This document shows, in pieces, positions 13,206 through 38,200 of a stretch of 64,000 bases of DNA. The position numbers and the translations under genes are program-made. The DNA is taken from positions 96,001 to 160,000 of the forward strand of contig CBDCXV010000002.1 of NCBI GenBank assembly GCA_965223905.1, given 5' to 3'. The notes under the pieces were generated by a model. That model made no database searches and had not been told where the DNA came from. It worked only from the letters and a program-made list of their open reading frames with translations. This DNA is from Candidatus Latescibacterota bacterium (GTDB lineage Bacteria > Latescibacterota > UBA2968 > UBA8231). Numbering within the stretch: position 1 is the first letter of the stretch; every line of letters starts with the position of its first letter.

Positions 13206-14039
13206 CTATTCCGCCGGTTCATCCGGTGTCTCGGAGGAATTCCGTCCATCCGGTTCACAGTCGGCATCCCCTTCGTTTCCCGACAGTGTGCGGATGCGCC
13301 CGATGATCGCCTCCACGGTACGGGTCACCTCCGCGAGCAGGGCGGAACTGTCCTCCATGATCACCTCCGCCCCCTGGTACCGGTATCTCACCGCGTACTC
13401 CGTGAGCCACCCCAGGCGCTCGCCCGCGGAGGTGTCGTTCTCCCCCGGATGCCGGCGCACGATCGCCGCCAGCTGCGTCAGATCGTGAGTGTTCCGGTAG
13501 TCCGCGTCGAGCGCGGAGATCCAGCCCTTCAGGGCGTTTTCTATCGCCTGCTGGGCGTGAAAGCCTATGGCTTCCTGGGCGGAATTCGCCTTGACCAGGT
13601 CATCCAGAACCCGGAGCTCCCGCTCGGCATTGGCGACGCGCTGCCGTATGTCGGGCCAGTTGCTCGGGTCGGGATTGTCCCAGGTCACCTTGTCTCCATT
13701 CGCATCGAAGCCGTCGCGGACCGCCTGTCCGGCCACGTGGTTTCGCGCCCGCCGACCGTCGTGGAAGTCGGTCTCGCTCAAGTGCACGAGATCGACCTCG
13801 ACCGGGTCCCCGTACAGCTCCTCGACCTTGCGGTTGGCCGCGGCCCGGGTCCGCACGGACCTCTGCCCGTCCACCGGGCCGGGACCGGTTATGACCAGCA
13901 GGTCGATGTCCGAACCCGGGCTGAAGTCCCCCCGCGCCCGCGAGCCGAACAGGATGACGGTATCCGGGTGCACCGCCTCACCCACGGCCCGGGCGACTGC
14001 GAAGGCCTGCGGGTCTGGCGGCATCCGGTGCGTTTTCAT
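13206..14039 (-). CDS. Fused minimal nucleotidyltransferase-HEPN protein (start uncertain)
   Basis: ILFGSRARGD...SDIDLLV (MNT) followed by GFHAQQAIENALKG...THDL...RYRY (HEPN). Confidence 0.85.
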   Translation of the reverse strand: MKTHRMPPDPQAFAVARAVGEAVHPDTVILFGSRARGDFSPGSDIDLLVITGPGPVDGQRSVRTRAAANRKVEELYGDPVEVDLVHLSETDFHDGRRARNHVAGQAVRDGFDANGDKVTWDNPDPSNWPDIRQRVANAERELRVLDDLVKANSAQEAIGFHAQQAIENALKGWISALDADYRNTHDLTQLAAIVRRHPGENDTSAGERLGWLTEYAVRYRYQGAEVIMEDSSALLAEVTRTVEAIIGRIRTLSGNEGDADCEPDGRNSSETPDEPAE

Positions 14040-14189
14040 TGGAGACGGTTTCATGGCTGGAACTGCTACCTTCACGCTTCTCAAAAATTGGACCGGGCCC
14101 CTCCTGGTCCGTTACCTGAGCCGAGGCCTGCCGGGAGTATCCGCGTCCCGGGGCATCGGTGGCAGGAGGCCCTGTCTTTCAGCGCGGGA

Positions 14190-15635
14190 TCACTGCGGGT
14201 ACGAGGGCAGCTCCAGCCCCGACAGGTGCTGGACGATGCGGACGACCTGGCCGGCGTACCCGTACTCGTTGTCGTACCAGACGTAGAGGATGCACTGGCT
14301 GCCGGTGACGATGGTCGAGGTGGAGTCGACGATGGCGGTCTTCAGCGAGCCGATGAAGTCGCTGGAGACGACCTCGGGGGAGGTGATGTAGTCGATCTGT
14401 CCCTGGAGCGGAGAGTCGAGGGAGATGCCGCGCAGGTACTGGTTGACCTCGGCGGCGGTGGTGGAGCGGCCCAGGCCGAGGTTGAGGATCGCCAGGGAGA
14501 CGTTCGGGGTGGGCACGCGGATGGCGTTGGCCGTCACCTTTCCCTTCAGGTCCGGCAGCGCCTTGGCGACGGCGCCGGCGGCCCCGGTTTCGGTGATCAC
14601 CATGTTGAGCGGAGCGCCGCGGCCCCGGCGCGTCTTGCTGTGGAAGTTGTCGACCAGGTTCTGGTCGTTGGTGTAGGAGTGGATGGTGTCGATATGGCCC
14701 TGTTCGATGCCGAATCGGTCGGCCATCACCTTGAGCACCGGGACGATGGCGTTGGTGGTGCAGCTTCCCGCCGACAGCAGCCTCTCTTCGGGGCAGATGT
14801 CGCCGCTGTTGACGCCGTAGATGATGTTGGGGATGTCCCCCTTGCCGGGAGCGGTGAGGATCACCTTGTCCACCCCCTTCGCCCGCAGGTGCGTTCCCAG
14901 CCTGTCGCGGTCGCGCCAGACGCCGGAGTTGTCGACGACGATGGCGTTCTCGATGCCGTAGGCGGCGTAGTCCGCCTTGTCCGGCGAGTCGGCGTGAAGG
15001 ATGCGGATGAGGTTGCCGTTGACCACCAGGGCGTTCTCGTCGCGGTCGAGCTGCACCGTTCCCTTGAAAGGTCCGTGGATCGAGTCGCGCCGCAGGAGGC
15101 TGGCCCGCTTCTCCAGGTCCTCCCTGGTGCGCCGCTGCACGACGACGGCCCGCAGCCGCCACTTGTCGCCGCCGCCGCTGCGGTCGATGAGGATGCGCGC
15201 GAGCATGCGCCCGACCCTGCCGAATCCGTAGAGGACCACGTCGCGGGGTTCCGCCTTCAGCAGCTCCCTGCCGGCGTCGAGGCTGCCGAGCTCGGTGCGC
15301 AGAAAGGTCTCGAGGTCCTTGCCCGCGGGCTCGTTCTGGTAGCGCATGGCGAGCTTGCCGATGTCGACGCGGGAGGCGGCCGGCTGCAGCTTCCCGAGGG
15401 CCTCGAGCATCGCCGAGCTCAGCTCGACCGGCAGCTCCCGGTCGAGGAAGTGGCGGGCGAACCGGTGCGCCTTGAGGATGTCGATCGGCGAGCTGCGCAC
15501 CAGGGAGCGGCCGAAGACCGTCACCACGACCCCGTGCTCGCGGTACAGGTTACCGACGACGGGAACCATGCACTCGGCGACCGCTTCCCGTTGAACCCAT
15601 TCCTCGAAGTACGACTCGGCCTGTTGATCCTTCAT
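14190..15635 (-). CDS. gap: Glyceraldehyde-3-phosphate dehydrogenase, long form with N-terminal extension
   Basis: YGFGRVGR, GSCTTNAI, HSYTNDQNL, RVPTPNVS and WYDNEYGY. Confidence 0.92.
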   Translation of the reverse strand: MKDQQAESYFEEWVQREAVAECMVPVVGNLYREHGVVVTVFGRSLVRSSPIDILKAHRFARHFLDRELPVELSSAMLEALGKLQPAASRVDIGKLAMRYQNEPAGKDLETFLRTELGSLDAGRELLKAEPRDVVLYGFGRVGRMLARILIDRSGGGDKWRLRAVVVQRRTREDLEKRASLLRRDSIHGPFKGTVQLDRDENALVVNGNLIRILHADSPDKADYAAYGIENAIVVDNSGVWRDRDRLGTHLRAKGVDKVILTAPGKGDIPNIIYGVNSGDICPEERLLSAGSCTTNAIVPVLKVMADRFGIEQGHIDTIHSYTNDQNLVDNFHSKTRRGRGAPLNMVITETGAAGAVAKALPDLKGKVTANAIRVPTPNVSLAILNLGLGRSTTAAEVNQYLRGISLDSPLQGQIDYITSPEVVSSDFIGSLKTAIVDSTSTIVTGSQCILYVWYDNEYGYAGQVVRIVQHLSGLELPSYPQ

Positions 15636-15784
15636 GATCCGCTGCTCCCGTGCTCCTGTGTCCGCATCCAAGATACCGGCGCTGCTGCCGTCTTCTCGGC
15701 AATGCGGCTGAATCTATATTATGCGTTTTGGCGTTTCGCGGTTGCGATCCCTATCCGAACAACGGACATCCGGGCTACAAATCC

Positions 15785-16582
15785 ATGACCATCAGCACCC
15801 TGCATCCATCCTTCGACGATCTCGACACACGCCTCGCCGAAATCGAGGACCAGGGGTTCACGATCTTCCCCGGCTGGCTCGACCGCGCCTTCACCGCGGA
15901 GCTGCGCGCCCACGTCGACGCCGTCGCCGGACCGGTCGGCAAAACCCCCCGCAACGACCTGAGACACCCGATCCCCGGCGCGATCATGGGGCGCCTCGCC
16001 GCCAACCCGGCCACCATCGAGCTCGGGCGCCTGCTGCTCGGGGGCAACCCGGAGTTGCGCATGCGCGAGCAGGTGCTCATCCGCTCCGACCCGGAACCTC
16101 CGCCGTACGCACAGGAGCTCCGCTACCATATCGACGCCGCTTTCTGCCGCGCCGAGTTCGAGGCGGTTCCGAAGCAGGTCTACTACCAGATGCTCCACTA
16201 CCTGAGCACGGTGAAGCCGGGCGGCGCCGGCGTCCACATCGTCCCCGGTTCTCACAGGTTCTCCTACGCCACCCTGTTCGGCGACGACCCCGGGCGCGAC
16301 ACCGGCCCCCTCGACTCCAACACCTCCGGCGCCGGCCACCGCGTCGACGGCGTCGAGATCTGCGCCGAGGACGGGGACCTCATCGTCTTCAATCCCCTCT
16401 GCTTTCACTCGGCGTCCCAGAACCGGACCGACCGGCCCCGCTACGTGTACTTCACCTCCTTCTACGACACCTCGGCGGAGCGTTTGATCGAATTCGTCCG
16501 CCGCACCGGCTACCGCGACCAGTTCCCCGACTCGCTGCGGCAGGCGCTGCCGCCCGGGCTGCGGCCGCTGCTCTCCCCCTGA
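15785..16582 (+). CDS. PhyH family dioxygenase
   Basis: DQGFTIFP, YHID, IVPGSH and GDLIVFNPLCFHSASQN...R. Confidence 0.85.
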   Translation: MTISTLHPSFDDLDTRLAEIEDQGFTIFPGWLDRAFTAELRAHVDAVAGPVGKTPRNDLRHPIPGAIMGRLAANPATIELGRLLLGGNPELRMREQVLIRSDPEPPPYAQELRYHIDAAFCRAEFEAVPKQVYYQMLHYLSTVKPGGAGVHIVPGSHRFSYATLFGDDPGRDTGPLDSNTSGAGHRVDGVEICAEDGDLIVFNPLCFHSASQNRTDRPRYVYFTSFYDTSAERLIEFVRRTGYRDQFPDSLRQALPPGLRPLLSP

Positions 16583-18453: not shown

Positions 18454-19254
18454 ATGGATCCTTTGAGGAAAGCACATAGTCGTGATCCGGTCGTGACCGT
18501 GGAAGGGCTGACTTTCAGCTACGGGGGCAGGCAGGTCCTGCACGGGATATCGTTCGCTCTGGAAAGAGGGGAGGTCGTCGGTCTACTGGGCCCGAACGGC
18601 GCCGGTAAGAGCACGACCATCAAGGTCCTGACCGGCATCCTTCCACCAGGCGGAGGGTCGGTTCGCGTGGCTGGCTGTTCCATGCCGACCGAGGCGATCG
18701 AAGCCAAAAAACGGATCGGATACGTACCCGAAGCCGCCGCCCTGTTTGAAAGCCTGTCGGGACAGGAGTTCCTGGAGCTCATGGGCCGCCTTCAGGAAGT
18801 CCCCGAAGAGGTTCTTCAGTCGCGAATTGGCCGATTCCTCAAGCAGTTTGACCTCGCCAACGACCGCCTGCGTCGTCTGGATGGGTACTCGAAGGGCATG
18901 CGCCAGAAGGTGCTCCTCAGCGCGGCCCTCCTTCACAATCCCGACGTGGTGATGCTCGACGAGCCCCTCTCGGGTCTGGACGTCAACACCGGGATCATGG
19001 TCCGGGACCTGATCGCCGCCCTGGCCGCGGAAGGCAAGACTATTCTCTACAGCTCACACGTCCTCGACGTGGTCGAGCGCGTGTGTGACCGCGCCCTGGT
19101 CATCCACGAAGGCCGTCTCATCGCGGACGGATCGCTGGAATCGCTGAAGAGTGCCACCGAGAGGGGCAGTCTCGAAGACGTCTTTCGGCAACTGACTCAT
19201 ACGGACGAAACGGTGAGTGGTGTTTCTGAAATCATAGAAGGTCTGCGGTCGTGA
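18454..19254 (+). CDS. ABC transporter ATP-binding protein
   Basis: Walker A GPNGAGKST, signature YSKGMRQK, Walker B MLDEP and H-loop SSH. Confidence 0.92.
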   Translation: MDPLRKAHSRDPVVTVEGLTFSYGGRQVLHGISFALERGEVVGLLGPNGAGKSTTIKVLTGILPPGGGSVRVAGCSMPTEAIEAKKRIGYVPEAAALFESLSGQEFLELMGRLQEVPEEVLQSRIGRFLKQFDLANDRLRRLDGYSKGMRQKVLLSAALLHNPDVVMLDEPLSGLDVNTGIMVRDLIAALAAEGKTILYSSHVLDVVERVCDRALVIHEGRLIADGSLESLKSATERGSLEDVFRQLTHTDETVSGVSEIIEGLRS

Positions 19255-20984
19255 GGGCTCGTCGTTCCAATCGAAGGTCAGCGGCCCTGGGGAGCCTTCA
19301 TTCCATCGCCAGGCGGTTCTTCCGCGGAACGGGGTTTGCCCGGCAGCTCGAACGGTGCGGGATCGATCCCCACCGATACTGGATCCTCGTCGATCTCTTC
19401 GGGACGCTCAGCAAACGGCAGGAAGTTCTCCGGATGGGCAGTCACGACACCATGCGTTTCTTTGCGATCGTCTGGTTCATTGGATCGAGCTGCATCAGCC
19501 TGTTGATGGCCTACTTCGGTGTTTCTCCTGGAATTTACCTGCTCGTTTTTGTCGGGCTGACCGTTTTTCAGCTCAGCCTGCTCTTAATCTCCGAGGTCGC
19601 AGAAACCCTGGTGAACCCGGTCGAGGGACTGATTCTGGCGCACCAGCCGGTGAACGGGGCCACTTGGTCGGGCGCAAAGCTGACCCACCTGATAAAGGTC
19701 GTCCTCTATGTCGTGGCGGGAGTGAATGGGGTGCCGGCGCTCGTCGGCTTTTTCCTTCCTCATACCAGCAGGTTCCTTTCCCTGGTCTACCCTGCCATGC
19801 ACTTTCTGATCGCTCTGGGGGTCGGGCTGGTCGTCGCGTTACTCTGCTGCAGCCTGTTCGGGTGGCTGATTCGCTTCATTCCCGTCCGGCGTCTCAAGGC
19901 GGCCGCGGCCATGGCTCAGGCCGTCCCCATGTTTTTCGCGTTCGGATTCAATCTTCTGAACCTGTTGGGAAAGGACCTTGTGAGTTGGCCAGCCTGGATC
20001 GACCTGCCCGAAGGATGGCTCGCCGTCGGCGAGGCCGTGCCGGGCGGGTTTCCGGTGATGCTGGGCGTCGCGGCCATTTCCGTCGCGATCGCTGGTACCG
20101 TATTCGGACTGCGGGCGCTTTCGAGTAATCATCTGATCCGTGTTTCGGGTCTGATGCACTCAGGTTCCAGGGTGCGGCGGCTGGAGTGGAGACGATGGAA
20201 GGTCAGTCCCTGGATTGCGAGGTTTACCGGCGGTCAAGCGAGCCGCGCCGGGTTTGCGTATCTGTGCCCCATGATGGTCCGGGACTGGCAGTTTCGGAAA
20301 AACATGGCCATGAGCATTCCGATCATACTCTTTGGCTCCCTTTATATGCTCGTCTACGGACTGGAGGTCTCTCCGTTTGCTCCAGGCTTTGCCTACACGC
20401 ACTTCCTCCCCCACTTGGCCGGATGGACGGTTCTCATTACGTGCCTGTGCCTGGCGTATGGCAATGACTACAAGGGCATCTGGTCGTTTTCCATCGTGCC
20501 GGATTCTTCCTTCCGTCCGTTTGCGAGGGGAATTCATGCGGCGCTCTGGCTCATGCTTGTCATCGTTCCCAACCTCTTCTGGCTGTTCCTGCTGGCGTGG
20601 TCCTGGGGCGTGAGGGATACCGTCTTATTCATCGCCTACAGCACGGCCGTTACGTCCCTGTACCTTGCAGTGGGCTTGAGGCTGATCGACGGTGTTCCCT
20701 TCGGTAAACAAAGGCCGCCGGAGCGAGGCGTGGTTACGCTCGAAATGATGTTTGGCTACCTCATCGTTATAAGTATCGCGATCGGGATCCAGTACGTTTT
20801 CTTCCGTTCGGCTGTTGCGGTCGCGGCCCTGACTGTAGTCGTGGGTCTGGGGACGTATTTCCTCACAAGAGCGTCACTTGCCAGGTTCGAATCCCGTATC
20901 TGGTTCCACCTGAACCCCGGCGCTTCGAAATCCAGGTTCCACTCATTACTTCGCCGTAGCACGGTGCCGTCGACCCTGCTTTGA
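19251..20984 (+). CDS. Multi-pass membrane protein, putative ABC exporter permease
   Basis: GTGA overlap with the ATPase gene and many hydrophobic segments. Confidence 0.75.
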   Translation: MRARRSNRRSAALGSLHSIARRFFRGTGFARQLERCGIDPHRYWILVDLFGTLSKRQEVLRMGSHDTMRFFAIVWFIGSSCISLLMAYFGVSPGIYLLVFVGLTVFQLSLLLISEVAETLVNPVEGLILAHQPVNGATWSGAKLTHLIKVVLYVVAGVNGVPALVGFFLPHTSRFLSLVYPAMHFLIALGVGLVVALLCCSLFGWLIRFIPVRRLKAAAAMAQAVPMFFAFGFNLLNLLGKDLVSWPAWIDLPEGWLAVGEAVPGGFPVMLGVAAISVAIAGTVFGLRALSSNHLIRVSGLMHSGSRVRRLEWRRWKVSPWIARFTGGQASRAGFAYLCPMMVRDWQFRKNMAMSIPIILFGSLYMLVYGLEVSPFAPGFAYTHFLPHLAGWTVLITCLCLAYGNDYKGIWSFSIVPDSSFRPFARGIHAALWLMLVIVPNLFWLFLLAWSWGVRDTVLFIAYSTAVTSLYLAVGLRLIDGVPFGKQRPPERGVVTLEMMFGYLIVISIAIGIQYVFFRSAVAVAALTVVVGLGTYFLTRASLARFESRIWFHLNPGASKSRFHSLLRRSTVPSTLL

Positions 20985-21094
20985 TTTTTCGATCTGGAGC
21001 CCGTGGAGCCCTCGGAAGGCTGCGGAAAACCATGGCCCGGCAGACACCTTGCCGCACAAGAACCCGCCGGCACGGCCGGCGCGAAAGGAGCCGG

Positions 21095-21661
21095 ATGAAA
21101 CGATTGTTCTGCACTATCACCCTGAGCTTCCTGGCGGTTGCCACCGCCGACGCCCAGGAGAAACCGCTTCCGCCGTCCGCGAAGCAGGTCCGCCCCGTGC
21201 TCGTCGGCGCCGCGCTTCCCTCTGCCGTTCTCACCGGGGACGACGGCAAGAGCCTCGATCTCGCCGCCGCGGTCGCGGAGAAGCCGGCGGTGCTCGTGTT
21301 CTACCGGGGAGGCTGGTGAGGGTACTGCAAGAACCAGCTAGTTGAGCTGGAACGGATCCACGCCCAACTGACCGCCATGGGGGTTCGGCTTTTCGCCGTC
21401 AGCCCGGATGAACCTTCCGCTGCCATGGCGACGCGCGCAGAGACCGGGGTCGGCTTTCCGCTGCTGTCCGACCGCGATCTGAAGCTGGCCTCGGGCCTTG
21501 GTATCGCCTACCGGAACCCCGACAGGCCGCCGCTGCCTGTTCCGTCCGTGTTCATAGTGGCAAAAGGTGGGAAGATCGCCTACCAGCATGTCGACCCGGA
21601 CTTCCGCGTCCGTATCGACAACGACATCATCCTGGCGATGGCAGGCAGTCTGGTGAAGTAG
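21095..21661 (+). CDS. Secreted peroxiredoxin-like (AhpC/TSA) selenoprotein with a UxxC motif
   Basis: RBS aaggag and a signal peptide. VLVFYRGGW-TGA(21317-19)-GYC continues in frame into ORF 21377..21661 (AVSPDE...FPLLSD...PSVFIV). A SECIS-like hairpin follows, and selA is in the window. Confidence 0.88.
21334..21350 (+). promoter_or_regulatory. Candidate bacterial SECIS element
   Basis: Hairpin CCAGCT-AGTTG-AGCTGG starting 14 nt after the UGA. The loop G lies 22 nt after the UGA. Confidence 0.6.
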
Positions 21662-24743: not shown

Positions 24744-24987
24744 TATGAGAGCGGATCAGCACGCAGCCCAGGCAGAACGCGTCTCCCTCGCGTACCGCCG
24801 ATTGGCTAACGCCATGATTCTCAGCACGTTACGGGAGATTTCGAAAAAGGTGGAAAGGGCGGAAGAGGTGCCGGAAGTCGATTTCGTCGAGAGCCGCCGC
24901 ATCGATCCGTGGTGCGAGCTGGCAGGGTTGGAGCCGGAGGTGGTCAGGAGCGCGGCCCGGCGAATCACCACCGAGCAAGTCTGTTGA
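24744..24987 (+). CDS. Small hypothetical protein
   Basis: 80-aa ORF (YRRLANAMILSTLRE...WCELAGLEPEVVRS) between an AT-rich upstream region and a strong terminator. Confidence 0.6.
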
Positions 24988-25009
24988 CGGACGCAGGAAG
25001 ATGCACTGG

Positions 25010-25046
25010 AAGCCCCGGGTCGATTCGCCCCGGGGCTTTTTTTTTT
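25010..25046 (+). terminator. Rho-independent terminator
   Basis: aagccccggg-tcgattcgc-cccggggctt followed by a T run, located between convergent genes. Confidence 0.85.
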
Positions 25047-25070
25047 GGCCAAATGGTTGCGGAGGCCGGC

Positions 25071-27317
25071 CTACCTGCCCGCGGCGAGACGCTTCCGGCT
25101 TTCCCAGTCGAGGACGCCGCGCACGACTTTCTCCGCATCGCGCTGGCGGAGCTGCTCGAAGCGCAGGGCCCAGGCGTGGTCGACGTAGGCGAGGTTGCGC
25201 AGCTCGACCAGCACCTTGACCGCGGCCGGGTTGTCGCGCAGCACCCTGAGACCCTGCCCGCGCACGCGGGAGCCGGCTCCGAGAGCCGGCAGCAGGGACT
25301 TCGCAAAGGCGCGGGAGGCGCGATCCTTGCGGCGGCCGTCGCGGCTCTCGTAGTAGAGCACCAGGGGCGCCCGCGGCGAGTTCTTGTCTATGTCGGCGTG
25401 GAACGAAAGGAAGATGCGCCGGGACTTCGGAGTGCCGGCGAACGCTTCCCTGGCGATACGCACGCGGGCGTCAAGTCCCTTGCGGCTGCCGCGCGGCCAC
25501 TGGTGGCGGGTGTTGGGCTTGTTCAGGGCGTAGCTGTTGTAGACCTCGTTCTTCTCGTTGACGAAGGTCTGCGACGGCGGCGCGCTGCCGCGGATCAGGT
25601 GGTTCGGACTCAGCAGCGTCATCGTCACCTTCGCTCCGTGCAGGCGCAGCAGCACGTAGGAGCGCAGGGCGATGTCGTGGACGTACTCGTCCTCGACGAC
25701 GTACAGCTTCCGGCCGTTGCCGTCGGTCGTGCGCACCACTGCCCCGGGATCGAGGCCGCCGTGCCCGGGATCGAGGACGATATGCCAGCCCTCGAGCCTG
25801 CTGCTCAGGCGGCCGGCGCGACCGACGGCGCGCTCGAACTGCTTCCACAGCTTGCGCGCCTGCCGGTAGGTCTTCAGCGGCGACGCCGGGTGGCCCTCGT
25901 AGTACTCGCGGCCCCGCTGCCGGTCCGCCCGCGGCCGCCGCGTGAAGTACGGCCCGTTTCCGACGTCGATGCGGCGCACGCCCCTGGGCGCCACCTGCAG
26001 ATCGGCCCAGTCGACGTCGGCGAGCTCCAGCCGTTCCCGGCGGGCCATCAGCGGCCTGACATTGAGCCTCTGCCCTGGGTGGATGACCAAGCTTCTCAGG
26101 TTGTTGAGCCGCTTCAGCTCTGCCACGCTCATCTGGTGAAGGCGGGCGATCTCGGTGAGGTTGTCGCCTCCTATTACCGTGTAGGTGCCGAGGCGCCGCG
26201 ATTTTTCCGGGCTGAGCACGAGCTCCTGGCCCGGATAGATGCGGTTCGACGTCAGCCCGTTCAGCTTCTTCAGCTCCGCCACGCTCATCGAGTAGGCGCG
26301 CGCGATCTCCCACAGGGCGTCGCCGCGCTCGACTATGTGCCGTGCCGACGGGGTGGCGCGCAGACGCAGCTTCTGCCCCACCAGTATGCGGTCCCCCTCG
26401 ATACCGTTGAGCTCCTTGAGGACGGCGAGGGCGATGTCGTAGCGGCGGGCGATGCCGGTCAGGTTTTCCCCGCGGCGGACGATGTGGATGCCCTCGTCGA
26501 CGGCAGAAGCGCGCAGACGCAGCTTCTGCCCCGGGCGGATGCGGTCGGATTTCAGGCCGTTGATTTGTTTGAGAAAGCTGACTCCTATGTCGAAGCGCCG
26601 GGCGATCTTCGACAGGGTATCCCCTCGGCGCACGACGTACTCGGTCACCTCCTCGGAAGCGGTTTCTCCCGCCCGCAGCCGCAGCCGCTGTCCGGCCCCG
26701 ATGCGGTCCCCGCGCAGGTTGTTCAGCTCCCGAAGCTCCCGCACCGGCACCCCCTCGGCCGCGGCGATATCCGAAAGCGTGTCCCCTCGCTTGACGAGGT
26801 AGGTGGCGGAGGACGCCGGGCGCAGGCGCAGCTTCTGTCCGGGGTGGATGACGGCGCCGTCGAGCTTGTTGATGCGCCTCAGCTCGCCGGGGGAGATCCC
26901 GTGTCGGGAGGCGATGGTCGTCAGGTTGTCGCCGCGGCGGACCACGTACCACTCGGCCGACCGCTCCTTGCGGACGGTGAGCTTCTGGCCGACCAGGATG
27001 CGGTCCCCCTCGATCCCGCTCCAGCGGCGCAGGTCGGCCACCGAAACCCCGTAGTGGCTGGCGATGTCGCTCAGGGTTTCGCCGCGGCGGACCGGGTGCT
27101 GCAGGGATCCCGCAGTCAGGCGGTCGCCCCCCATGGACGCCGTGCAGACCATTACGGCGGCGGCGTAGCGGAGTAGAGACAGCCGTGCAGATGCCTTGGC
27201 GGCAGCCGGCCAAAGGAGTTTCAAGCAGGAACGTCCGGTGGTTGCGGACGGGGAGCGGAGGGGTGCCCGAGCTGCGGAAGGGAGGGAGTTCTCGGGCACC
27301 GCTAAGTATAACCACAA
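25071..27317 (-). CDS. LysM x7 N-acetylmuramoyl-L-alanine amidase (start uncertain)
   Basis: Seven 'Y/HxVxxGD/ExLxxIA' LysM repeats, then Amidase_3 motifs VLDPGHGG, E, SFHAD and VLVEL. Confidence 0.9.
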   Translation of the reverse strand: MWLYLAVPENSLPSAARAPLRSPSATTGRSCLKLLWPAAAKASARLSLLRYAAAVMVCTASMGGDRLTAGSLQHPVRRGETLSDIASHYGVSVADLRRWSGIEGDRILVGQKLTVRKERSAEWYVVRRGDNLTTIASRHGISPGELRRINKLDGAVIHPGQKLRLRPASSATYLVKRGDTLSDIAAAEGVPVRELRELNNLRGDRIGAGQRLRLRAGETASEEVTEYVVRRGDTLSKIARRFDIGVSFLKQINGLKSDRIRPGQKLRLRASAVDEGIHIVRRGENLTGIARRYDIALAVLKELNGIEGDRILVGQKLRLRATPSARHIVERGDALWEIARAYSMSVAELKKLNGLTSNRIYPGQELVLSPEKSRRLGTYTVIGGDNLTEIARLHQMSVAELKRLNNLRSLVIHPGQRLNVRPLMARRERLELADVDWADLQVAPRGVRRIDVGNGPYFTRRPRADRQRGREYYEGHPASPLKTYRQARKLWKQFERAVGRAGRLSSRLEGWHIVLDPGHGGLDPGAVVRTTDGNGRKLYVVEDEYVHDIALRSYVLLRLHGAKVTMTLLSPNHLIRGSAPPSQTFVNEKNEVYNSYALNKPNTRHQWPRGSRKGLDARVRIAREAFAGTPKSRRIFLSFHADIDKNSPRAPLVLYYESRDGRRKDRASRAFAKSLLPALGAGSRVRGQGLRVLRDNPAAVKVLVELRNLAYVDHAWALRFEQLRQRDAEKVVRGVLDWESRKRLAAGR

Positions 27318-27366
27318 CTTGAGGATAGCGCAAAAAGAACAGGAGTCGTATTATCCTTCAATTAAT

Positions 27367-28773
27367 ATGAACGACGCGGTGAAATCGCTTCCCTCGGTGG
27401 ACGAGGTGCTGCGGCTCGAGTCGACGCGGCGGCTGGTGAGGGCCTGCGACCGGGGATACGTGGTCGAGGCGGTCCGCTCGGTGCTGCGCGGGGTTCGCGA
27501 CGAGTTGCTGGCCGCGGCTGGCGGCGAGGTCCCCTCCCGCGAAGAGCTGCTGGCGCGGGTGGAGACCGAGCTCGCCGGGGCTGTGCGCGCCGGAGGGGTA
27601 GCGAGCCTGCATCGCGCCGTCAACGCGACCGGCGTCATCCTGCACACCGGCCTGGGGCGGGCCCCCCTGCCCCCCGCGGCGCTCGCCGCGGTGATGGAGG
27701 TGGGGGAGAACTACTGCAACCTCGAGCTCGACCTGGAAACCGGTGAGCGGGGTACGCGGCTCGCCCACGTCGAGCGGATGATCTGCGAGGTCAGCGGGGC
27801 CGAAGCCGCGGTAGTGGTCAACAACAACGCCGCCGCCGTCCTGCTGCTGCTCAACAGTCTGGCCAGCGGCCGCGAGGTGATCGTTTCGCGTGGCGAGCTG
27901 GTCGAGATAGGGGGCGCTTTCCGCATGCCGGACATCGTCGCCGCCAGCGGCGCGCGCCTGCGCGAGGTCGGGACGACCAACCGCACCCATCTGGCCGACT
28001 ACGAGAACGCCGTCGGCGAGCAGACCGGCGCCATCCTCGCCGTGCACCCCAGCAACTACCGCGTCGAGGGGTTCACCGCCGCAGCCGGTTTGCCCGAGCT
28101 GGCCGCCCTCGGCGAGCGCGCCGGGGTGCCGCTGGTCTACGATCTCGGCGGCGGGGTTCTCGTCGACCTCGAGGACTGGGGCCTGCCGCCCGAACCGGTG
28201 GTCGCCGGCAGCCTGCGTTCCGGCGCAGGGGCGGTCACCTTCAGCGGCGACAAGCTGCTAGGCGGACCGCAGGCCGGGATCATCGCCGGCAGGGCCGACC
28301 TCGTTGAGCAGGCGGCCGGGAACCCGTTGATGCGGGCCCTGCGCTGTGACAAGCTGACCCTCGCGGCCCTCGCCGCCACCCTGCGCCTCTACCGCCTCGA
28401 CCCGGCCCGCCTCCGCGCCGCCCACCCGGTGCTGCGGATGATGACCGAGGATGCCGCCGCGGTGCGCCTCCGGGCCGAGGCCCTGGTCCGCAGTTTGTCC
28501 GACAGGGCGCGCTGCCGCCTCGTGGCGACCGTGGAATCGACCACCGCGGAATTCGGCAGCGGCGCTCTGCCGCTGGAAGAGCTTCCCAGCGCCGCGGTCT
28601 GCCTGCGCCCGACGTTCTGCAGCGCCGAGAGGCTTGCCCGGGCGCTGCGCACCGACCCCGAGGCCGTGGTCGGCCGCATTCGCAAGGAGGCCGTGCTGCT
28701 CGACATGCGCACGACGCGCGACGACGAGGTCGCGGCCGTCGCCGCCAGTCTCGAGCGGGCCGCTGCCGGCTGA
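27367..28773 (+). CDS. selA: L-seryl-tRNA(Sec) selenium transferase
   Basis: NATGVILHTGLGRAP, VVNNNAAA, SRGELVEIGGAFRMPD, EVGTTNRTH, FSGDKLLGGPQAG and RALRCDK. Confidence 0.96.
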   Translation: MNDAVKSLPSVDEVLRLESTRRLVRACDRGYVVEAVRSVLRGVRDELLAAAGGEVPSREELLARVETELAGAVRAGGVASLHRAVNATGVILHTGLGRAPLPPAALAAVMEVGENYCNLELDLETGERGTRLAHVERMICEVSGAEAAVVVNNNAAAVLLLLNSLASGREVIVSRGELVEIGGAFRMPDIVAASGARLREVGTTNRTHLADYENAVGEQTGAILAVHPSNYRVEGFTAAAGLPELAALGERAGVPLVYDLGGGVLVDLEDWGLPPEPVVAGSLRSGAGAVTFSGDKLLGGPQAGIIAGRADLVEQAAGNPLMRALRCDKLTLAALAATLRLYRLDPARLRAAHPVLRMMTEDAAAVRLRAEALVRSLSDRARCRLVATVESTTAEFGSGALPLEELPSAAVCLRPTFCSAERLARALRTDPEAVVGRIRKEAVLLDMRTTRDDEVAAVAASLERAAAG

Positions 28774-29215: not shown

Positions 29216-32200
29216 ATGCTGCCTGTTGTAATCGGCTGTCTGATCGGGCTGCTCTCAGCGGCCGGCGCCGAGCCGCTGCTGGAGGGTCGGGTGCTTCTGT
29301 CCTCGGGCCCCCCGGTGGCCGGGGCCCGGGTGCGGCTGTTCGCCGAGCTGGGGCGCTCGCTGGGCGCCACCGCGGATGAGAGCGGCTATTTCGCCTTTCC
29401 CCTGAAGGCCCTGCGCCGTGCCGCGCCGCTGCCGGCGCGCCTGCACCTGGGTCAGAACTACCCCAACCCGTTCAATCCCTCGACCATCATCCCCTATCAG
29501 GTACCGGTGGCGACCCGGGTGCGCCTGGAGGTGTTCAACATCCTGGGTCAGCGTGTGGCGACCCTGGTCGACGGGGAGCGCCCGGCCGGCTTTCACACGG
29601 CGACCTGGAACGCGACCGATGCCTCGGGGCGAGGCGTGGGCTCGGGGGTGTACCTGTACCGCCTGCTGGGGGGCGGGGAGCGCCTGACGCGGTCGATGGT
29701 GCTGCTCGACGGCCCGGTGGTCGCGGCGGGTGGAACCGGTTCCGGCCAGGCAGGAGATCCCTGGAGTGGGGCGATTGGAGCGGCGGGGCAAGCTGCGGAC
29801 AGCGGGACGGATCCCTGGAACGGGGCGGTGGGCTCCACGGGTGAACCCGCTTCTGCGGGCCAACCCCCGGGCAGCCCGGCGGTTGGAGCGGTCTCCAAAA
29901 GTGGAGCGGATCCGTCCGGGTGGACGGAAGCGGAGGCAAGGGCGGCATTCACCACGGCGGGTACCGGTGCGGCGGCAGCGGGTTCGCTGGACGGAATGGA
30001 TCGAGTCTACGGGCTGACGGTCTCGGGACCGGGGCTGGTTGCCTGGGTCGACCCGGCCTTCCGGGTGGGGGCCGGGCGGGTCGAGATCCAGGTTCAAACG
30101 CTGGCGGACCTGCCTCGGGGCAAGGTGGCCTCAGGCGGCCTGCTGGGGGACGTCAACCGGGACGGGCAGGTCGATCTCGCCGACGCCCTGCTGGTCGCCT
30201 CGTACAGCGAGGACCCGACCCTGTCCCTTGCCAACGGCGATATCACCCTGGGGGACGTCAACCAGGACGGCCAGGTCGACCTGGCCGACGCCCGGCTCAT
30301 CGAGGCCTACCACGCCGACCCGTCCGACCCGTCGCTTCCGGAAGGGATCGGCTTTCCAGTGGGGGCCGGTACCCAGGCGCTGATGCTCTACTGGACGGAC
30401 GCGGACGGCGACCGCATTCAGCGGTCCCTCCTCGACGGCTCCGGGGTCGAGGACGTGGTCGACAGCGGCCTGGTCAACCCGCGCGGCCTGGCCGTGGACG
30501 AGGCCGCCGGCAAGCTCTACTGGACCGACTACGGCAGCGACAAGATCCAGCGCGCCAACCTCGACGGCTCTCAAGTGGAAGACCTGGTCACCGAGGGCCT
30601 GCGCATCCCCCTGGGTCTGGCCCTGGATGCGGGAGCGGGCAAGCTCTACTGGACCGACAACGGCAGCGACAAGATCCAGCGGTCCAACCTCGACGGCTCG
30701 CAAGTCGAGGACCTGGTCACCGGCCTGCAGACGCCGTTGAGCCTGGCTCTCGACACGGCCGCGGGCAAGCTCTACTGGACCGACAGCGGCGCCGACAAGA
30801 TCCAGGGGGCCAACCTCGACGGCTCCGAAGTGGAGGACCTGGTGACCACCGGCCTGGAGCTTCCCCGGGGGCTGGCCGTGGACGCGGCCGCCGGCAAGCT
30901 CTACTGGACGGACAACGGCACCGACATGATCCAGCGGGCCAACTTGGACGGCTCGCAGGTGGAAGACCTGGTCGCCAGCGGCCTGCACACCCCCCGGGGG
31001 CTGGCCCTCGACGTGGAGGCCGGCAAGCTCTACTGGACCGACAGCGGCACCGGCAGGATCCAGCGCGCCAACCTCGACGGGTCGCAAGTCGAGGACTTGG
31101 TGACCGAGGGCCTGCTGAGTCCGCGGGGCCTGGCCCTGGTCCGGACCGTTGCCGCCGCCGCAAACCGGGCCCCGGTCCTGGTGCCTATAGCGGACCGGAC
31201 CGCGGCGGCCGGCGACACCCTGACCCTGGCGGCGGCCGCCACCGACCCGGACGGCGACGCCCTGACCTACGCGGCTTCATCGAGCGACGAGGCGGTAGCC
31301 CGGGTCGAGGTGGCTGATTCTCTGCTGACGGTCTACGCACTGGCGATGGGCCGGGCCACGATCACCGCGACCGCCCGCGACCCGGAGGGCCTGGAGGCGG
31401 TGCAGCGCTTCGCCGTGCTCGTCGTCGGGGCCGGAAGCCTCGGGGCCGTCAACCGGCTCTACTGGACGGACGCGGAGGCGGACCGGATCCGGCGGTCTCA
31501 CCTGGACGGCTCCGGGGTGGAGGACGTCGTCGACAGCGGCCTGGTCAACCCGCGCGGCCTGGCTCTGGACGCAGTCGCCGGCAAGCTCTACTGGACCGAC
31601 TACGGCAGCGACCGGATTCAACGGTCCAACCTCGACGGCTCTCAAGTGGAAGACCTGGTCACCGCGGGACTGCGCATCCCCCTGGCCCTGGCCCTCGACG
31701 CGGCCGCGGGCAAGCTCTACTGGACGGACAACGGCACCGACCGGATTCAACGGTCCAACCTCGACGGAACCGAAATCGAGGATCTCGTCACCGGTCTGCA
31801 GACCCCGTTGGGGCTGGCCCTGGACGCGGCCGGCGGCAAGCTCTACTGGACCGACAGCGGCAGCGACAAGATCCAGCGCGCCAACCTCGACGGCTCTGAG
31901 GTCGAAGACCTCGTCACCACGGGTCTGCAGATCCCGCGGGGGCTGGCCCTGGACGGGGCCGCCGGCAAGCTGTATTGGAGCGACAACGGCACCGACCGCA
32001 TTCAACGGGCCAACCTCGACGGCACGGAAATAGAGGACTTGGTGACCACCGGTTTGGGCACCCCCCGGGGCCTGGCCCTCGACGTTTCTGCGGGCAAGCT
32101 CTACTGGGCCGACAGCAGCACCGACAAGATTCAGCGCGCCAACCTCGATGGCAGCGAAATCGAAGACTTGGTGACCGAGGGCTTGCTGAGTCCCCGGGGG

Positions 32201-35200
32201 CTGGCCCTGGCCCGGACCGCGGCCGGCGACAACCAGGCCCCGGAACTGGAGCCGCTGGCGGACCGCACCGCTGCCACCGGCGACTCGCTCACCCTCGAGC
32301 TTACGGGCAGCGACCCGGACGGCGACGCCCTGACCTACACGGCCTCCTCCGGCGACGAAGCGGTGGCCACGGCGGAAGCCGCCGATTCCCTGGTGACCCT
32401 GCGTCTGCTGGCCGTCGGCGAGACCGCCATCACCGTGACCGCCCGCGACCCGGGGGGCCTGCAGGCGATCCGGACTTTCACCGTCACCGTGCAGGCCTCC
32501 AACGAGCCCCCGCTCGCCGTGCCCTGGCTCTACTGGAGCGACGCGCGCACCGACCGCATCCAGCGCGCCGAGCTCGACGGCAGCGACCTCCGCACCCTGG
32601 TCGACGGCCTCGGACAGCCCCGGGACCTCGCCCTCGACCGGGACGGCGGCCGCATGTACTGGACCGACAGCGGCGCCGACAAGATCCAGCGCGCCCACCT
32701 CGACGGGTCGCGGGTCGAAGACTTGGTGACCGAGGGCTTGAAGGAGCCGTTCGGCCTCGCCCTCGATAAGGCCGGCGGCAAGATCTACTGGAGCGACTGG
32801 GGCAGCGACAAGATCCAGCGGTCCAACCTCGACGGCTCCGAGGTGGAAGACCTGGTCGCTACCGGCCTGAACGAGCCCTACGGCTTGGCTCTCGACCTTT
32901 CCGGCGGCAAGCTCTACTGGACGGACTGGGGCAGCGACCGCATCCAGCGGGCAAATCTCGACGGCTCCGGAGTCGAGGACCTGGTCACCGGGCTCAACCA
33001 GCCGCGGGGGATCGCCCTCGATTTGGGGGACGGCCGCATGTACTGGCCGGACTGGGGCACCGACAAGATCCAGCGCGCCCAGCTCGACGGCTCGGATGTG
33101 GAAGACCTGGTCACCGAGGGGCTGCAGACCTCCCAGGCGATCGCGCTGGATTTGGGCGGCGGCAAGATGTACTGGACCGACTACGGCACCGACAAGATCC
33201 AGCGGGCCAACCTCAACGGCTCCGAGGTGGAAGACCTGGTCACCTCCGGCCTGAAGGAGCCCTACGGCCTGACCCTGGGGGCCGGCCTTTCGGCGCAGGT
33301 CTTCAAGGTAGGGGGAGACTCGACGACCCTGAACCTGTCGGGCCGCTTCCGCGACCCGGAGGGGGGCGCCCTGACCCTCACGGTGTCTTCCAGCAACGAG
33401 GCGGTCGCCACCGCGACCCTGACCGATTCGGTGTTGACCATCGCTCCGGTAACCCCCGGCCAGGTGACGGTCTCGGTGACCGCCCGCGACGAAGGAGGCC
33501 GGGCTACGACCCTGCCGGTCCCGGTGACCGTGTACCCGACCAACCGTTCCCCCGTGGCCCAGACTGTGGACGACCGCAAGGTCCGCATCGACCGGCCGGC
33601 CCGGGTGGAGCTGTCGACCGCCTTCACCGACCCGGACGAAGGAGACGTGCTGACCTACGCGGCCACCTCGAGCAACGAGGCGGTGGCCACGGCAGCGGTC
33701 GAGGGGTCCGGGGTGGACATCGCTCCCAAGAGCCTCGGGCAGACGACCATTGCGGTGACCGCCCGCGACCCCGAAGGCCTGGAGGCGTCGCTGAGCTTCG
33801 GAGTCACCGTCGAGCCCAAGCCGCCGCCCAGGCCTCCCCGGCCCCCGCCCGGCTCGAGTGATAATGGCGGCGGCGGCGGTCCGGTAACCCCCCCGCCCCC
33901 GCCACCGCCTCCGCGGCCGCCCCCAGGTCCGAACAACGCCCCCACCTTCGACGAGGGCCCGGCCGCCACCCGCAGCGTCGCCGAAAACACCGGGGCGAAC
34001 CGGAACATCCAGCACCCGGTCCGCGCCACCGACGACGACGGACACCGCCTGACCTACCGCCTCTCCGGCACCGACGAGGCCCGCTTCGCCGTCGTCTCCG
34101 GCAGCGGGCAGCTGCGCACCCGGTCCGGGGTCGCCTATGACTTCGAGACGACTAACCGCTACAAGGTGACGTTGGAAGCCGACGACCCCTACGGCGGCAC
34201 CGATGCCATCGACGTGACCGTGCACGTGGCCGACGTCGACGAACCTCCCCAGGCCCCGGGCAGGCCTCAGGTCGACCCGGCTTCATCCACCAGCCTGACG
34301 GTAACCTGGACGGAGCCCGTCAACACCGGCCCCGATGTCCACGACTACGACGTGCAGTACCGCAAGAGCGGCAGCTTCCTCCCCTGGCCGCACACCGGCC
34401 CCGGCACCGCCGCCACGATCCCGGACCTGGACGTCAACACCCGTTACGAGGTGCAGGTGCGGGCGCACAACGACGAAGGCGAGAGCTCCTGGTCCGCCTC
34501 CGGCTTCGGGACCACCAGCGCCAACCAGCGGCCGGTATTCGACGAATCCGCTCCGACGCGCAGCCTCGACGAGAACACCACCGGAACACAAGACATCGGC
34601 GCCCCGGTGAGGGCGACCGATTCGGAGAACACGGCGCTGACCTACCGCCTCTCCGGAGGGGACGCGAGCTCCTTCACCCTCGACGAGACCAACGGCCAGC
34701 TGCGCACCCGCCCCGGCGTCGCCTACGACTTCGAGACGCAGAGCCGCTACTCGGTTACGGTGGAGGCAACCGACGAGCCGGGCGGCGGAACGACCGTCAC
34801 CGTGACCATCGAACTGATCGACGACGACAACGAGCGGCCGGACCGGCCCGACCGGCCCACGGTGACAGCCTCGACGCTGAACAGTCTATCCATTCGCTGG
34901 ACCGCCCCGGCCAACACCGGTCCCGACATCCACGACTACGACGTGCAGTACAGCGAAGACGGCGGCACCTTCGGCGACTGGCCGCACACCGGACCGGGCA
35001 CGAGCACGACGATCACCAGCCTGACCGCGGACACGCGCTACCAGGTGCAGGTGCTCGCGCGTAGCCCGGAAGGCGAGAGCCTCCGGTCCGAGTCGGTGGA
35101 GGCGAGGACCGTCGCCAACCAGGCGCCCACGTTCAGCGAAGGATCGCGCACCTCGCGCAGTCTGGACGAGAACACCGCCGGGACGAACGACATCGGCAAC

Positions 35201-38200
35201 CCGGTGACCGCCACCGACAACGACGGAGGGACGCTGGACTACCGGCTCGCCGGCACCGACGCGGCCAGCTTCGACCTCGACGCGAACGACGGACAGCTCG
35301 AGACCCGGTCCGGCGAGACCTACGACTACGAGGAGAAGGCCAGCTACGAGGTGACGGTGCGCGTCGAGGACGGCCAGGGCGGCAGCAACACCATCGAGGT
35401 GACAATTAACCTGAGAGACGAAACCGAACCGCCCGAGGACCCGGCAGCACCCAGCGTCTCGGCGGCCTCCTCTACCAGTTTGACGGTGACCTGGGCGGAG
35501 CCGGCCACCACCGGCCCCGACATCGACGACTACGACATCCAATACCGCGAAGGGGACAGCGGCAGCTTCACCTCCTGGTCCCACAACAGCGCGGAACGCA
35601 CCGCGACCATCACCAACCTGACCCCGGGCACGAGCTACCAGGTGCAGGTGCTCGCGCGCAACGACGAAGGAGCCAGCGACTGGTCCTCCTCCGGCACGGG
35701 AAGCACCGACCCCAATCAGCTGCCGGTGTTCACCGACGGGTCGAGCGCCACCCGCCGCCTCGACGAGAACACCACCGGCGTTGAGGACGTCGGCGATCCG
35801 GTCGGCGCTACCGACCCGGAGAACACTCCCCTGACCTACAGCCTCGGAGGCACGGATGCGGACGCCTTCGCCATCGACACGCGCAGCGGCCAGCTCCGCA
35901 CCGACCGCGACGAGACCTGGGACTACGAAACCAAGTCCAGCTATTCGGTGTCGGTGAAAGCCGAGGACGGCCACGGCGGCGAGCGCACCATCCCCGTGTT
36001 CATCGACCTGAACGACCTCAACGAGGCTCCGGAGTTCATCAGCGACGCGGCCTTCGAGGCCGCGGAGAACCAGACCTTTGCCGGCCTGGTGACCGCTCAG
36101 GACCTCGATAGCGGCGACCAGATCACAGACTACACCCCCACCGGCGGCGCCGACCGCGACCGGTTCGAGATCAACAGCGGGGGCGTGCTGATCTTCAAGG
36201 ATACCCCCGACTTCGAGAACCCCTCGGACGCGGGAAGGAACAACCAGTACAGCGTGGTGGTCACAGCCACCGGCGGCACCGGAGGGCGCGCACTGACCGC
36301 GGAACAAGCGATCACCGTCACCGTCACCGACGAGAACGAAGAGCCCGCCTTCACCAGCGACGATGCCTTCATGGTCCATGAAAACGAGCGGTTCGTCGGC
36401 CGGGTGACCGCCCAGGATGTCGACAGGGACGATGGCATCACCGGCTACGAGGTCGCCGGAGGGGCCGACGGGAGCCGGTTCGAGATCGCCAACACCAACG
36501 AGCTGCGCTTCAAGGAGAGTCCCGACGAGAAGCCCGACTTCGAGCGGCCATCGGATTCAGGGGGTGACAACGAATACAACGTGCTGGTAGAAGCCGGCGG
36601 CGGCACGGACACCCGAAAGCTGACGGCAACGCAAGCCGTCACCGTCACCGTGGAAGATGTGGATGAGCCGCCGGGCAAACCCGATCCGCCCACCGTGAGC
36701 GACGAGACCGAGAGCAGCCTGAGGGTGAGCTGGACCGAGCCGGCCAACACCGGCCCCGTCATCACCAACTACCACGTGCAGTACCGCCACACCGGCGCCT
36801 ACATCGCCTGGTCCGACAGCGGCGCGGCCCCGAGCCGCACGATCACCGGCCTGCGCTCGGGACGGACCTACCAGGTCCAGGTGCAGGCCAAAAACGACGA
36901 GGGGGAAGGACCGTGGTCCAATCCGGGCAGCGGGACCACCCTCACGGCCCCGACGGTTTCCAGCGTCGCCTTCACCTCGACGCCTGCCTCGGGGCAGAAC
37001 AACAACTACAAGAAGGACGACGTGATCGGCGTGACCGCGACCTTCAGCGAGGCGGTGACGGTCACCGGAACGCCGCAGATCGACCTGACCATCGGTTCCA
37101 CCGAACGCCAGGCCGACTACGAAAGCGGCTCTACAACGACCCAGCTCCTGTTCCAGTACGAGGTGCAGGCCAGCGACGAGGACGATAACGGCGCTTCCAT
37201 CAACGAAAATGGGCTCAAGCTCAACAACGGCCGCATCTTCCTGCTCAAGAACAGCACCACCGTCAACGCGGATCTGGCGCACGGGGGGCGCACCAATCAG
37301 TCCGCACACAAGGTCGACGGCGTCGCTCCGACCCTCACCAAAGCGGAGGTCAAGAGCGAGGAGCTGACCCTGGCGTACGTCGAGAGACTCGACGTCGCTT
37401 CGAAGCCGGCAACCGGGGACTTCGCCGTGACCGTCGACGGCGAGGCGCGAAGCGTCACCGCGGTAACGATGCACACCAGCGAAGTGGCCCTCACCCTCGC
37501 CTCGGAGGTGACGCCGGGCGAGACAGTGACGGTCACCTACACGCCGGGGACCAACCCGATCCGCGACCTGGCGCAGAACCCCGCCGGCGTCCTGAGCAAC
37601 CTGACGGCGGCGAACCGGACTCCGATCGGCAATGTCTGCAGCCGCACCGCGCAGGTGCGCAACGAGATCGTCAGGCAGGCTCCCGTAAGCACCTGCGGTG
37701 CCGTGACAGCGGAACACCTGGCGGAAATCGAGTACCTCTTCCTGTACGGCGAGAACATCTCGACACTGAAAGCCGGCGACTTCGCCGGGCTGACGGCCCT
37801 GGAACTCCTCGACCTGGGGAGCAACAGCATCAGCTCGCTGCCGGCCACCCTGTTCTCCGGGTTGTCGGCGCTGATCGCCCTCGACCTGTCCGACAACTCC
37901 TTCACCGCCCTGCAGGCCAACCGTTTCTTGGGGTTGACCGCCCTCGAAGACCTCTACCTGGACGGCAACGACCTCGCCAGCCTCGACGCCAACGCCTTCT
38001 CCGGGCTGACGGCGCTGATTGTCCTCGACCTGTCCGGGAACTCGTTGACCACGCTGTCGGCCAACCTCTTTTCCGGCTTGTCGGCACTGGAAGACCTCTA
38101 CCTGTTCGAAAACGAGCTCGGCAGCCTCGGAGCGAACCTGTTCTCCGGACTGACGGCGCTGACGGATCTCCTGCTGGCCGGCAACGACCTCGGCAGCCTC

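Follow-up and report, generated by a model that had tools for sequence, protein, structure and literature searches.

A predicted exported peroxiredoxin-like selenoprotein with a SECIS-type hairpin, stored as two fragments, in a Candidatus Latescibacterota genome

Peroxiredoxin-like (Prx-like) selenoproteins have been known as a family since about 2004. In a 2026 review, the Prx-like thiol:disulfide oxidoreductases (PF00578, with a UxxC or UxxU motif in which U is selenocysteine, Sec; example WP_010940744.1) stand as a high-confidence predicted family, beside a UxxS 'peroxiredoxin-like family protein' of cd02970 (PMC13188914). The Global Ocean Sampling (GOS) survey counts 225 selenoproteins and 2,740 cysteine (Cys) homologues under 'Prx-like 1, pfam00578, UxxC' (PMC2398784), and the Sargasso Sea study of 2005 describes a 'Prx-like protein' in which a thioredoxin-like UxxC replaces the TxxC/TxxU of peroxiredoxins (PMC1088965). 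Here we analyse a 64,000-nucleotide (nt) stretch of DNA from a Candidatus Latescibacterota bacterium (GCA_965223905.1, contig CBDCXV010000002.1, positions 96,001 to 160,000 of the forward strand; hereafter the window, whose own numbering is used), in which a preliminary description made from the letters alone had pointed to a hidden, exported Prx-like selenoprotein at positions 21095-21661. Our results suggest that this region is very probably one gene, encoding a secreted or periplasmic Prx-like oxidoreductase of the thioredoxin fold with Sec at the N-terminal Cys position of its active site (U75-G-Y-C78). We read Sec here because of the pairing of U75 with Cys in homologues, the conservation of the UGA, a covarying hairpin behind it and a complete Sec machinery in the genome. 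Similar to the Prx-like thiol:disulfide oxidoreductases, the window protein has an AhpC/TSA (PF00578) fold, UxxC in place of TxxC/TxxU and abundant Cys homologues; its motif is UGYC, whereas UPxC is the commoner form in that family. A homologue from a Geobacter metagenome-assembled genome (MAG; locus L195), which we used as a proxy for the type member WP_010940744.1, has the same FYRGxW-U-xxC motif and is 32% identical over 161 amino acids (aa). The gene is an unannotated addition to a known and widespread selenoprotein family. That Prx-like/AhpC-TSA selenoproteins exist, as the preliminary description stated, is borne out by the PF00578 UxxC family in all three of the sources cited (PMC13188914, PMC2398784, PMC1088965); 'hidden' is accordingly apt for the gene, of which only fragments are annotated, but not for the family, which is already in print.

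The complete coding sequence lies on the plus strand (21095-21661), from an ATG at 21095, with a Shine-Dalgarno-like AAGGAG 4 nt upstream of it (21085-21090, plus strand), to a TAG stop at 21659-21661. When the TGA at 21317-21319 is translated as Sec, a single frame of 188 aa with one Sec results (...VLVFYRGGW-U-GYC-KNQLVELE...), in agreement with the frame first proposed, which had U at codon 75 and a normal C-terminus. The part downstream of the TGA is identical at 109/113 positions in one congener and 94/113 in a second, compared with 64/74 and 60/74 upstream of it, and in a third comparison 54/108 post-TGA positions were identical. Under translation table 11 the frame splits into a piece ending at 21319 and a 94-aa open reading frame (ORF) at 21377-21661 (ATG 21377). 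The public protein collection stores the 94-aa and 74-aa fragments as separate entries and nothing else of the gene, the read-through 188-aa protein being absent from it, just as the predicted annotation in two fragments would have it. The 74-aa N-terminal fragment has been placed in the same 90%-identity cluster as 532-aa proteins (P0135, P0138 and others) that have no similarity to the selenoprotein, a grouping that is probably a clustering artefact. At the start of the protein we find a putative signal peptide of the general secretory (Sec-type) kind (21095-21154, plus strand), MKRLFCTITLSFLAVATADA, with predicted cleavage after ADA and QEKP as the following residues. It begins with basic residues and continues into a hydrophobic core, in which 11-residue Kyte-Doolittle windows reach 2.18, and A-D-A stands ahead of the likely cleavage site; a hydrophobic N-terminal segment is present in 9/9 aligned Cys homologues too. 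From sequence alone we infer that the selenoprotein is exported via this peptide, with an A-x-A cleavage site.

The preliminary description had placed the UGA at the first Cys of the family's RGxWCPxC motif and had proposed looking for Cys/Sec homologue pairs, and both points were supported by the homologues. In a large protein collection we found 692 of them at E <= 1e-10, all of the Cys type and the best at 38% identity; in an alignment with nine of them, U75 stands opposite the invariant first Cys of FYRGGWCPYC (more generally FYRGGWCxxC) in 9 of 9. Those with names are called peroxiredoxin-like or AhpC/TSA family protein, and the NCBI name 'peroxiredoxin-like family protein' borne by several of them presumably derives from CDD cd02970 PRX_like2. 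A single-protein search for related loci returned only one; the nearest record with a name, at 92% identity, is a Candidatus Latescibacterota MAG. We then have 42 matching frames from a scan of 61 related genomes, with exactly one TGA in 34, no stop in 7 and a TAG in 1. Across the phylum (168 genomes, 70 of which gave a match at E <= 1e-15, for 81 match rows in total) one TGA and no other stop was observed in 74/81 rows, the remainder having two TGA (2 rows), a TGA plus a TAG (1), three other stops (1) or none (3); at E <= 3.2e-34, exactly one TGA was present in 41/41 rows. The TGA also keeps its place, since a strict regular expression finds it at the same FYRGxW-U-xxC position in 27 of 31 loci and a looser one finds it there in 2 more, hence in all 29 inspected; L050 and L051 were located by neither expression and are left out of every count. 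Inside the phylum, the only close Cys-type copy found (L057, G072:C305:4075-5052) reads FYRGGW-C-GYC-NRQLAGLQ at 38% identity, and the hairpin described below is missing from it (4/6 pairs).

Behind the Sec codon the plus strand carries a hairpin of the bacterial Sec insertion sequence (SECIS) type at 21334-21350, with a stem of CCAGCU (21334-21339) and AGCUGG (21345-21350) closing the loop AGUUG (21340-21344). Bacterial SECIS elements are described, in the 2026 review, by a loop of 3-9 nt, a stem of 4-16 base pairs (bp), a G among the first two nucleotides of the loop, a UGA-to-loop distance of 16-37 nt and a minimum free energy (MFE) of -7.5 kcal/mol or lower (PMC13188914). The hairpin here, which starts 14 nt past the UGA, falls within all of these ranges: its loop has 5 nt with G in second place, its stem has 6 bp, the apical loop lies at a distance of 20 nt from the UGA, and the energy is -7.8 kcal/mol when folded alone (-8.9 kcal/mol when evaluated in context). 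Our support for it comes from comparison with other genes rather than from the fold of a single sequence. In a gapless alignment of 29 orthologous sequences, 98.2% of the cells that make up the helix (columns 24-29/35-40) are paired, compared with at most 50.6% in controls in which the 3' arm was slid, and RNAalifold recovers the same helix from these sequences. Changes on both sides were found in 3/6 pairs (C-G/G-C, G-C/A-U and C-G/U-A), some of them synonymous on both arms, where CAG/CAA (Gln) pairs with CUG/UUG (Leu), and the covariation score was reached by 0/500 shuffles. At least five different perfectly complementary versions of the stem occur, and every homologous Sec-type row has G as the second nucleotide of the loop.

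Because the helix overlies Q-L-x-x-L codons and CAGCUG is self-complementary, we examined whether the peptide by itself could account for the pairing, by comparing distinct genes that encode QLxxL at the hairpin position, those of the Cys type being drawn from other phyla. Full pairing (6/6) was observed in 30/33 Sec-type genes, with 5 pairs in 2 and 4 pairs in 1, whereas only 2/43 Cys-type genes reached it, the others having 5 pairs (11 genes), 4 (14), 3 (13) or 2 (3). Sec-type and Cys-type genes with the same QLxxL peptide thus clearly reveal an RNA element that constrains synonymous codons. Six Sec-type rows without QLxxL stand outside this restricted count; five are regular-expression matches in non-homologous frames (L044, L046, L049, L054 and L111), and the remaining row, L047, is truly orthologous, reads HLVQL and forms 5/6 pairs. 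In distant homologues from other phyla, where the hairpin was sought in a fixed register, 6/6 pairs were found in 20/80, and their SECIS, if any, would lie in another register. As judged from these comparisons, the hairpin at 21334-21350 is a conserved SECIS-type element, so that the covariation and the contrast between Sec-type and Cys-type genes uphold what had first been noted as a 6-bp hairpin with an AGTTG loop at SECIS-like spacing. The suggestion that it could serve as a SECIS model for the lineage also holds, in that the covarying 17-nt hairpin can be used as a local SECIS descriptor and as such for re-annotating related genomes. Among the Cys-type genes, 6/6 pairs occur only in L133 and in L120 (CAVYXZ010000005.1, an uncultured Chloroflexia MAG), the latter reading FYRGGW-C-GFC-QKQLVEL. 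In the SECIS register L120 has a perfectly paired hairpin, GCAGTT-GGTCG-AACTGC, possibly left over from a recent change of Sec to Cys.

The genes for making and inserting Sec were found in the source genome, which comprises 7.92 Mb in 11 contigs. Within the window selA, for L-seryl-tRNA(Sec) selenium transferase, lies on the plus strand at 27196-28773 (TIGR00474 541.3 bits against a cut-off of 267.9; Pfam SelA 5.3e-140), 5.5 kb downstream of the selenoprotein gene and close to the 6 kb first estimated; the two share no operon. selB scores 344.6 bits, summed in one 645-aa frame (cut-off 242.25), and tRNA-Sec, on another contig, scores 72.6 bits, above its cut-off, and is called tRNA-SeC (tca) by ARAGORN; no tRNA gene was found in the 64-kb window. 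With selD at 367 bits, likewise above its cut-off (L015, G000:C10:1272233-1273156, plus strand), the whole of selB, selC and selD, which the preliminary description had suggested locating, is present above curated or gathering cut-offs. This selD is itself a selenoprotein gene, with an in-frame TGA (TCG-U-AAK) and a GAGCCC-GGUC-GGGCUC hairpin 11 nt past the UGA. As for ordinary stop usage, TGA is the terminator of 6/8 genes neighbouring the window selenoprotein and occurs in frame in 0/8, an ORF of 4128 aa included.

It might be argued that the TGA arose recently by nonsense mutation, or through the miscalling of a TGC or TGT, in a gene that is either dead or of the Cys type. The codon indeed differs from TGC or TGT by a single base, the assembly is still a draft (11 contigs, 5.11% contamination), and Cys-type homologues are far commoner in databases; however, the same TGA is found in 74/81 frames of the phylum and at no fewer than 76 homologous loci of other phyla, the sequence downstream of it stays conserved and a covarying hairpin follows it, which makes such an explanation barely conceivable. 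Genuine termination at the UGA, with an exported peptide of 74 aa as its product and perhaps a second protein of 94 aa started at ATG 21377, would agree with the storage of both fragments as separate public proteins and with TGA being the commonest stop of the neighbourhood. Yet neither fragment makes a complete thioredoxin fold, as the Pfam match to residues 37-163 crosses the TGA, and the active-site motif would be severed between W and the resolving Cys; considering also that the frame and the TGA position are kept down to about 33% identity and that the Sec machinery of the genome is complete, we regard this reading as very unlikely. Some termination beside Sec insertion is expected, as in any bacterial selenoprotein. 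UGA reassignments are known in some uncultured bacteria, and decoding as Trp, Gly or Cys, through a reassigned code or near-cognate suppression, would at least in the case of Cys be tolerated at position 75. Here the regular use of TGA as a stop by 6/8 neighbours, and its absence in frame even from the 4128-aa ORF, speak against a reassigned codon, and the position is that of a catalytic Cys and not a Trp or Gly site; together with tRNA-Sec, SelA, SelB and SelD in the genome and a SECIS-type hairpin specific to Sec-type genes, this renders a standard amino acid extremely unlikely.

Several observations nevertheless weigh against our reading of the region as a selenoprotein gene with a SECIS. 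Folded as a single sequence of 66 nt it gives z = -1.5, which is not significant, and the MFE structure is a competing helix that contains the UGA. The hairpin stem is short, at 6 bp, and its palindrome comes partly free with the Q-L..x-L codons, as seen in the Cys-type genes (11/43 at 5/6 pairs, 2/43 at 6/6), while the Sec-type sequences compared with them are kin, many from one genus, so that the counts are not independent and carry no statistical test. A search of Rfam at E <= 10 returned nothing at the hairpin and three chance matches on the opposite strand, and no NCBIfam model scored the protein above its cut-off. Moreover, no neighbouring gene was found conserved beyond the genus in 12 of 31 loci, which were picked for diversity and give rows for L025, L028 and L029 only.

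Turning to the protein itself, Pfam AhpC-TSA (PF00578) matches residues 37-163 with 83.7 bits (cut-off 26; 1.3e-23), spanning the TGA, and Redoxin scores 79.2 bits (3.5e-22), also above its cut-off. When the family profile was compared with solved structures, the BCP/PrxQ proteins 2cx3, 3hjp and 2ywn were closest, from 8.9e-17 (2cx3) to 3.4e-14. In the profile alignment to PDB 2cx3, the redox motif U-G-Y-C (21317-21328, plus strand) has U75 opposite the Ser of F-S-P-V-C, that is, the Thr/Ser of PxxxTxxC, and C78 opposite the peroxidatic Cys of BCP-type peroxiredoxins, with R71 opposite the Prx Pro. Since Sec thus replaces Thr/Ser and Arg replaces Pro, the canonical PxxxTxxC is lacking and the protein is not a canonical peroxiredoxin; this alignment indicates that it is a thioredoxin-like UxxC variant of the AhpC/TSA fold. 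Of the earlier label 'peroxiredoxin-like', then, the AhpC/TSA fold (PF00578) stands, and membership of the canonical peroxiredoxins, whose Pro and Thr/Ser are not kept, does not.

The window protein aligns with BCP/PrxQ over nearly the whole mature domain, but it differs in the missing catalytic Pro and Thr/Ser and in a CxxC/UxxC that replaces the single peroxidatic Cys. The PrxU-type Sec peroxiredoxins (PxxxTxxU) belong to the same superfamily and are selenoproteins as well; in these Sec is the peroxidatic residue, whereas in the window protein Sec comes three residues earlier, at the Thr position, Cys takes the peroxidatic position and Pro is changed to Arg, and NCBIfam peroxi_PrxU gives a score of 16.2 against a cut-off of 270. 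There is also a likeness to ResA, TlpA and DsbE, which are exported proteins of the thioredoxin fold in which the N-terminal Cys of W-C-x-x-C is the nucleophile (export being predicted for the window protein), and the family profile also finds ResA chains in the PDB (4e-9 to 2e-6). Unlike these, the window protein has Sec for Cys, its NCBIfam matches to ResA and DsbE are sub-threshold, as are all such scores by curated cut-offs, and no cytochrome-maturation genes lie nearby. The best NCBIfam match is the SelL-related model SelL_rel_redox (NF040769), with which it has in common a Prx-like fold and a redox motif that contains Sec; at 38.2 bits against 120 the protein is not a member, and it has one Sec where SelL-type proteins have two. 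The score for redoxin_TUGYCR (NF053656) is likewise below cut-off (16.4 against 100). The window protein furthermore lacks an insert of about 21 residues that the nine aligned Cys homologues possess.

On this basis we propose that SelB carrying Sec-tRNA(Sec) would be recruited by the 17-nt hairpin inside the N-Q-L-V-E-L-E codons, and that the UGA at 21317-21319 would in consequence be decoded as Sec rather than as a stop, after which the pre-protein would be exported through its predicted N-terminal signal peptide. In CxxC proteins the N-terminal Cys position is the nucleophile, and by analogy the U75 selenolate of the mature protein may attack a disulfide or peroxide substrate in the periplasm, with C78 resolving it in a cycle via a selenenylsulfide. 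The most likely role, which we favour with some reserve and by analogy, is that of a thiol:disulfide reductant like TlpA or ResA; activity as a thiol-dependent peroxidase is possible, if rather doubtful.

The motif is not confined to this phylum. A scan for FYRGxW-TGA-xxC with one genome per species gave at least 118 stretches, and of the 80 loci examined 76 (hence at least 76 in total) encode homologues of the window protein, at 25-39% identity. By their record titles these homologues come from Acidobacteriota, Poribacteria, Gemmatimonadota, Verrucomicrobiota, Desulfobacterales and the Geobacter MAG, and further from Binatus, Methylomirabilota, Chloroflexi, Planctomycetes and several proteobacterial classes; a record of uncultured Latescibacteria has the motif that is usual in the largest of the related genera. 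The string 'Latescibacter' has 0 occurrences in the text of the 2026 selenoprotein review (PMC13188914), and in the literature on Latescibacter and selenocysteine, as judged by title and the start of the abstract, we found nothing on the Prx-like family.

The genes flanking the selenoprotein gene encode an ABC-ATPase fusion, a 577-aa membrane protein without a Pfam match, and PhyH, SDR (short-chain dehydrogenase/reductase) and GFO/IDH/MocA proteins, and no cytochrome-maturation gene was found near it. Since no neighbour is conserved outside the genus, this context is uninformative on substrate or reductant. For three long plus-strand ORFs, at 13449-15788, 19251-20984 and 24909-27176 (779, 577 and 755 aa), Pfam gave no match at E <= 0.001. 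The product of 577 aa is by its appearance a polytopic membrane protein, and its ORF shares 4 nt with the end of the ABC-ATPase fusion gene upstream, stop codon included. At 29216-41602, again on the plus strand, the window holds the single open frame of 4128 aa that has no in-frame TGA.

A survey of PF00578 matches in the source genome revealed an in-frame TGA in 4/18. One of these, L067 (G000:C1:116626-117084, minus strand), is another candidate for a selenoprotein of the Prx-like kind, reads FYRGFF-U-GGC-KVQLGQL, shares 34% identity with the window protein, and has a hairpin of the same design as the window gene, CCAGCU-AGGUC-AGCUGG, 14 nt past its UGA. This hairpin is kept by orthologues in congeners, among which L074 has a compensatory CCAACU/AGUUGG stem. 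Two more AhpC/TSA-fold frames, L275 (G000:C1:280556-280921, minus strand) and L276 (G000:C11:984803-985153, minus strand), have one in-frame TGA each; one of the pair is a canonical Sec-peroxiredoxin, FFYPKDDTPG-U-T (PxxxTxxU), and the other is TlpA-like, GNT-U-PYC. In genomes of the same class, L076 (G097:C1:5178052-5179011) and also G122:C10:2934-3293 carry a form with two in-frame TGAs, FYRGPW-U-PK-U-QVQL, whose UxxU could possibly be a diselenide centre as in SelL-type proteins.

What is known of selenoproteins in general is unchanged by these results; earlier papers have already described the family, its motif and how widely it is distributed. In the source genome, at least four AhpC/TSA-fold genes and selD have an in-frame TGA. 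We tentatively suggest, as a possibility that we consider unlikely as yet, that the Latescibacterota lineage forms a selenium-dependent clade not recognised so far, whose exported Prx-like UxxC proteins have taken over almost completely from the Cys forms and have diversified into several paralogue groups that share one compact SECIS. Such groups may comprise W-U-GYC, W-U-PHC, FF-U-GGC, GT-U-GFC and the UxxU form, and the shared element may consist of a 6-bp stem and an NG[G/U]NN loop placed 14 nt past the UGA, constraining the QLxxL start of the active-site helix. If this were true, the lineage would offer a natural series for studying the co-evolution of a SECIS with a protein helix, and hairpin-bearing Cys-type genes such as L120 would be recent Sec-to-Cys reversions. 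In practical terms, there is an annotation error here that deserves correction. With this gene and its orthologues each recorded as a pair of fragments that mean nothing by themselves, both the redox proteome of a poorly studied lineage and its dependence on selenium are underestimated.

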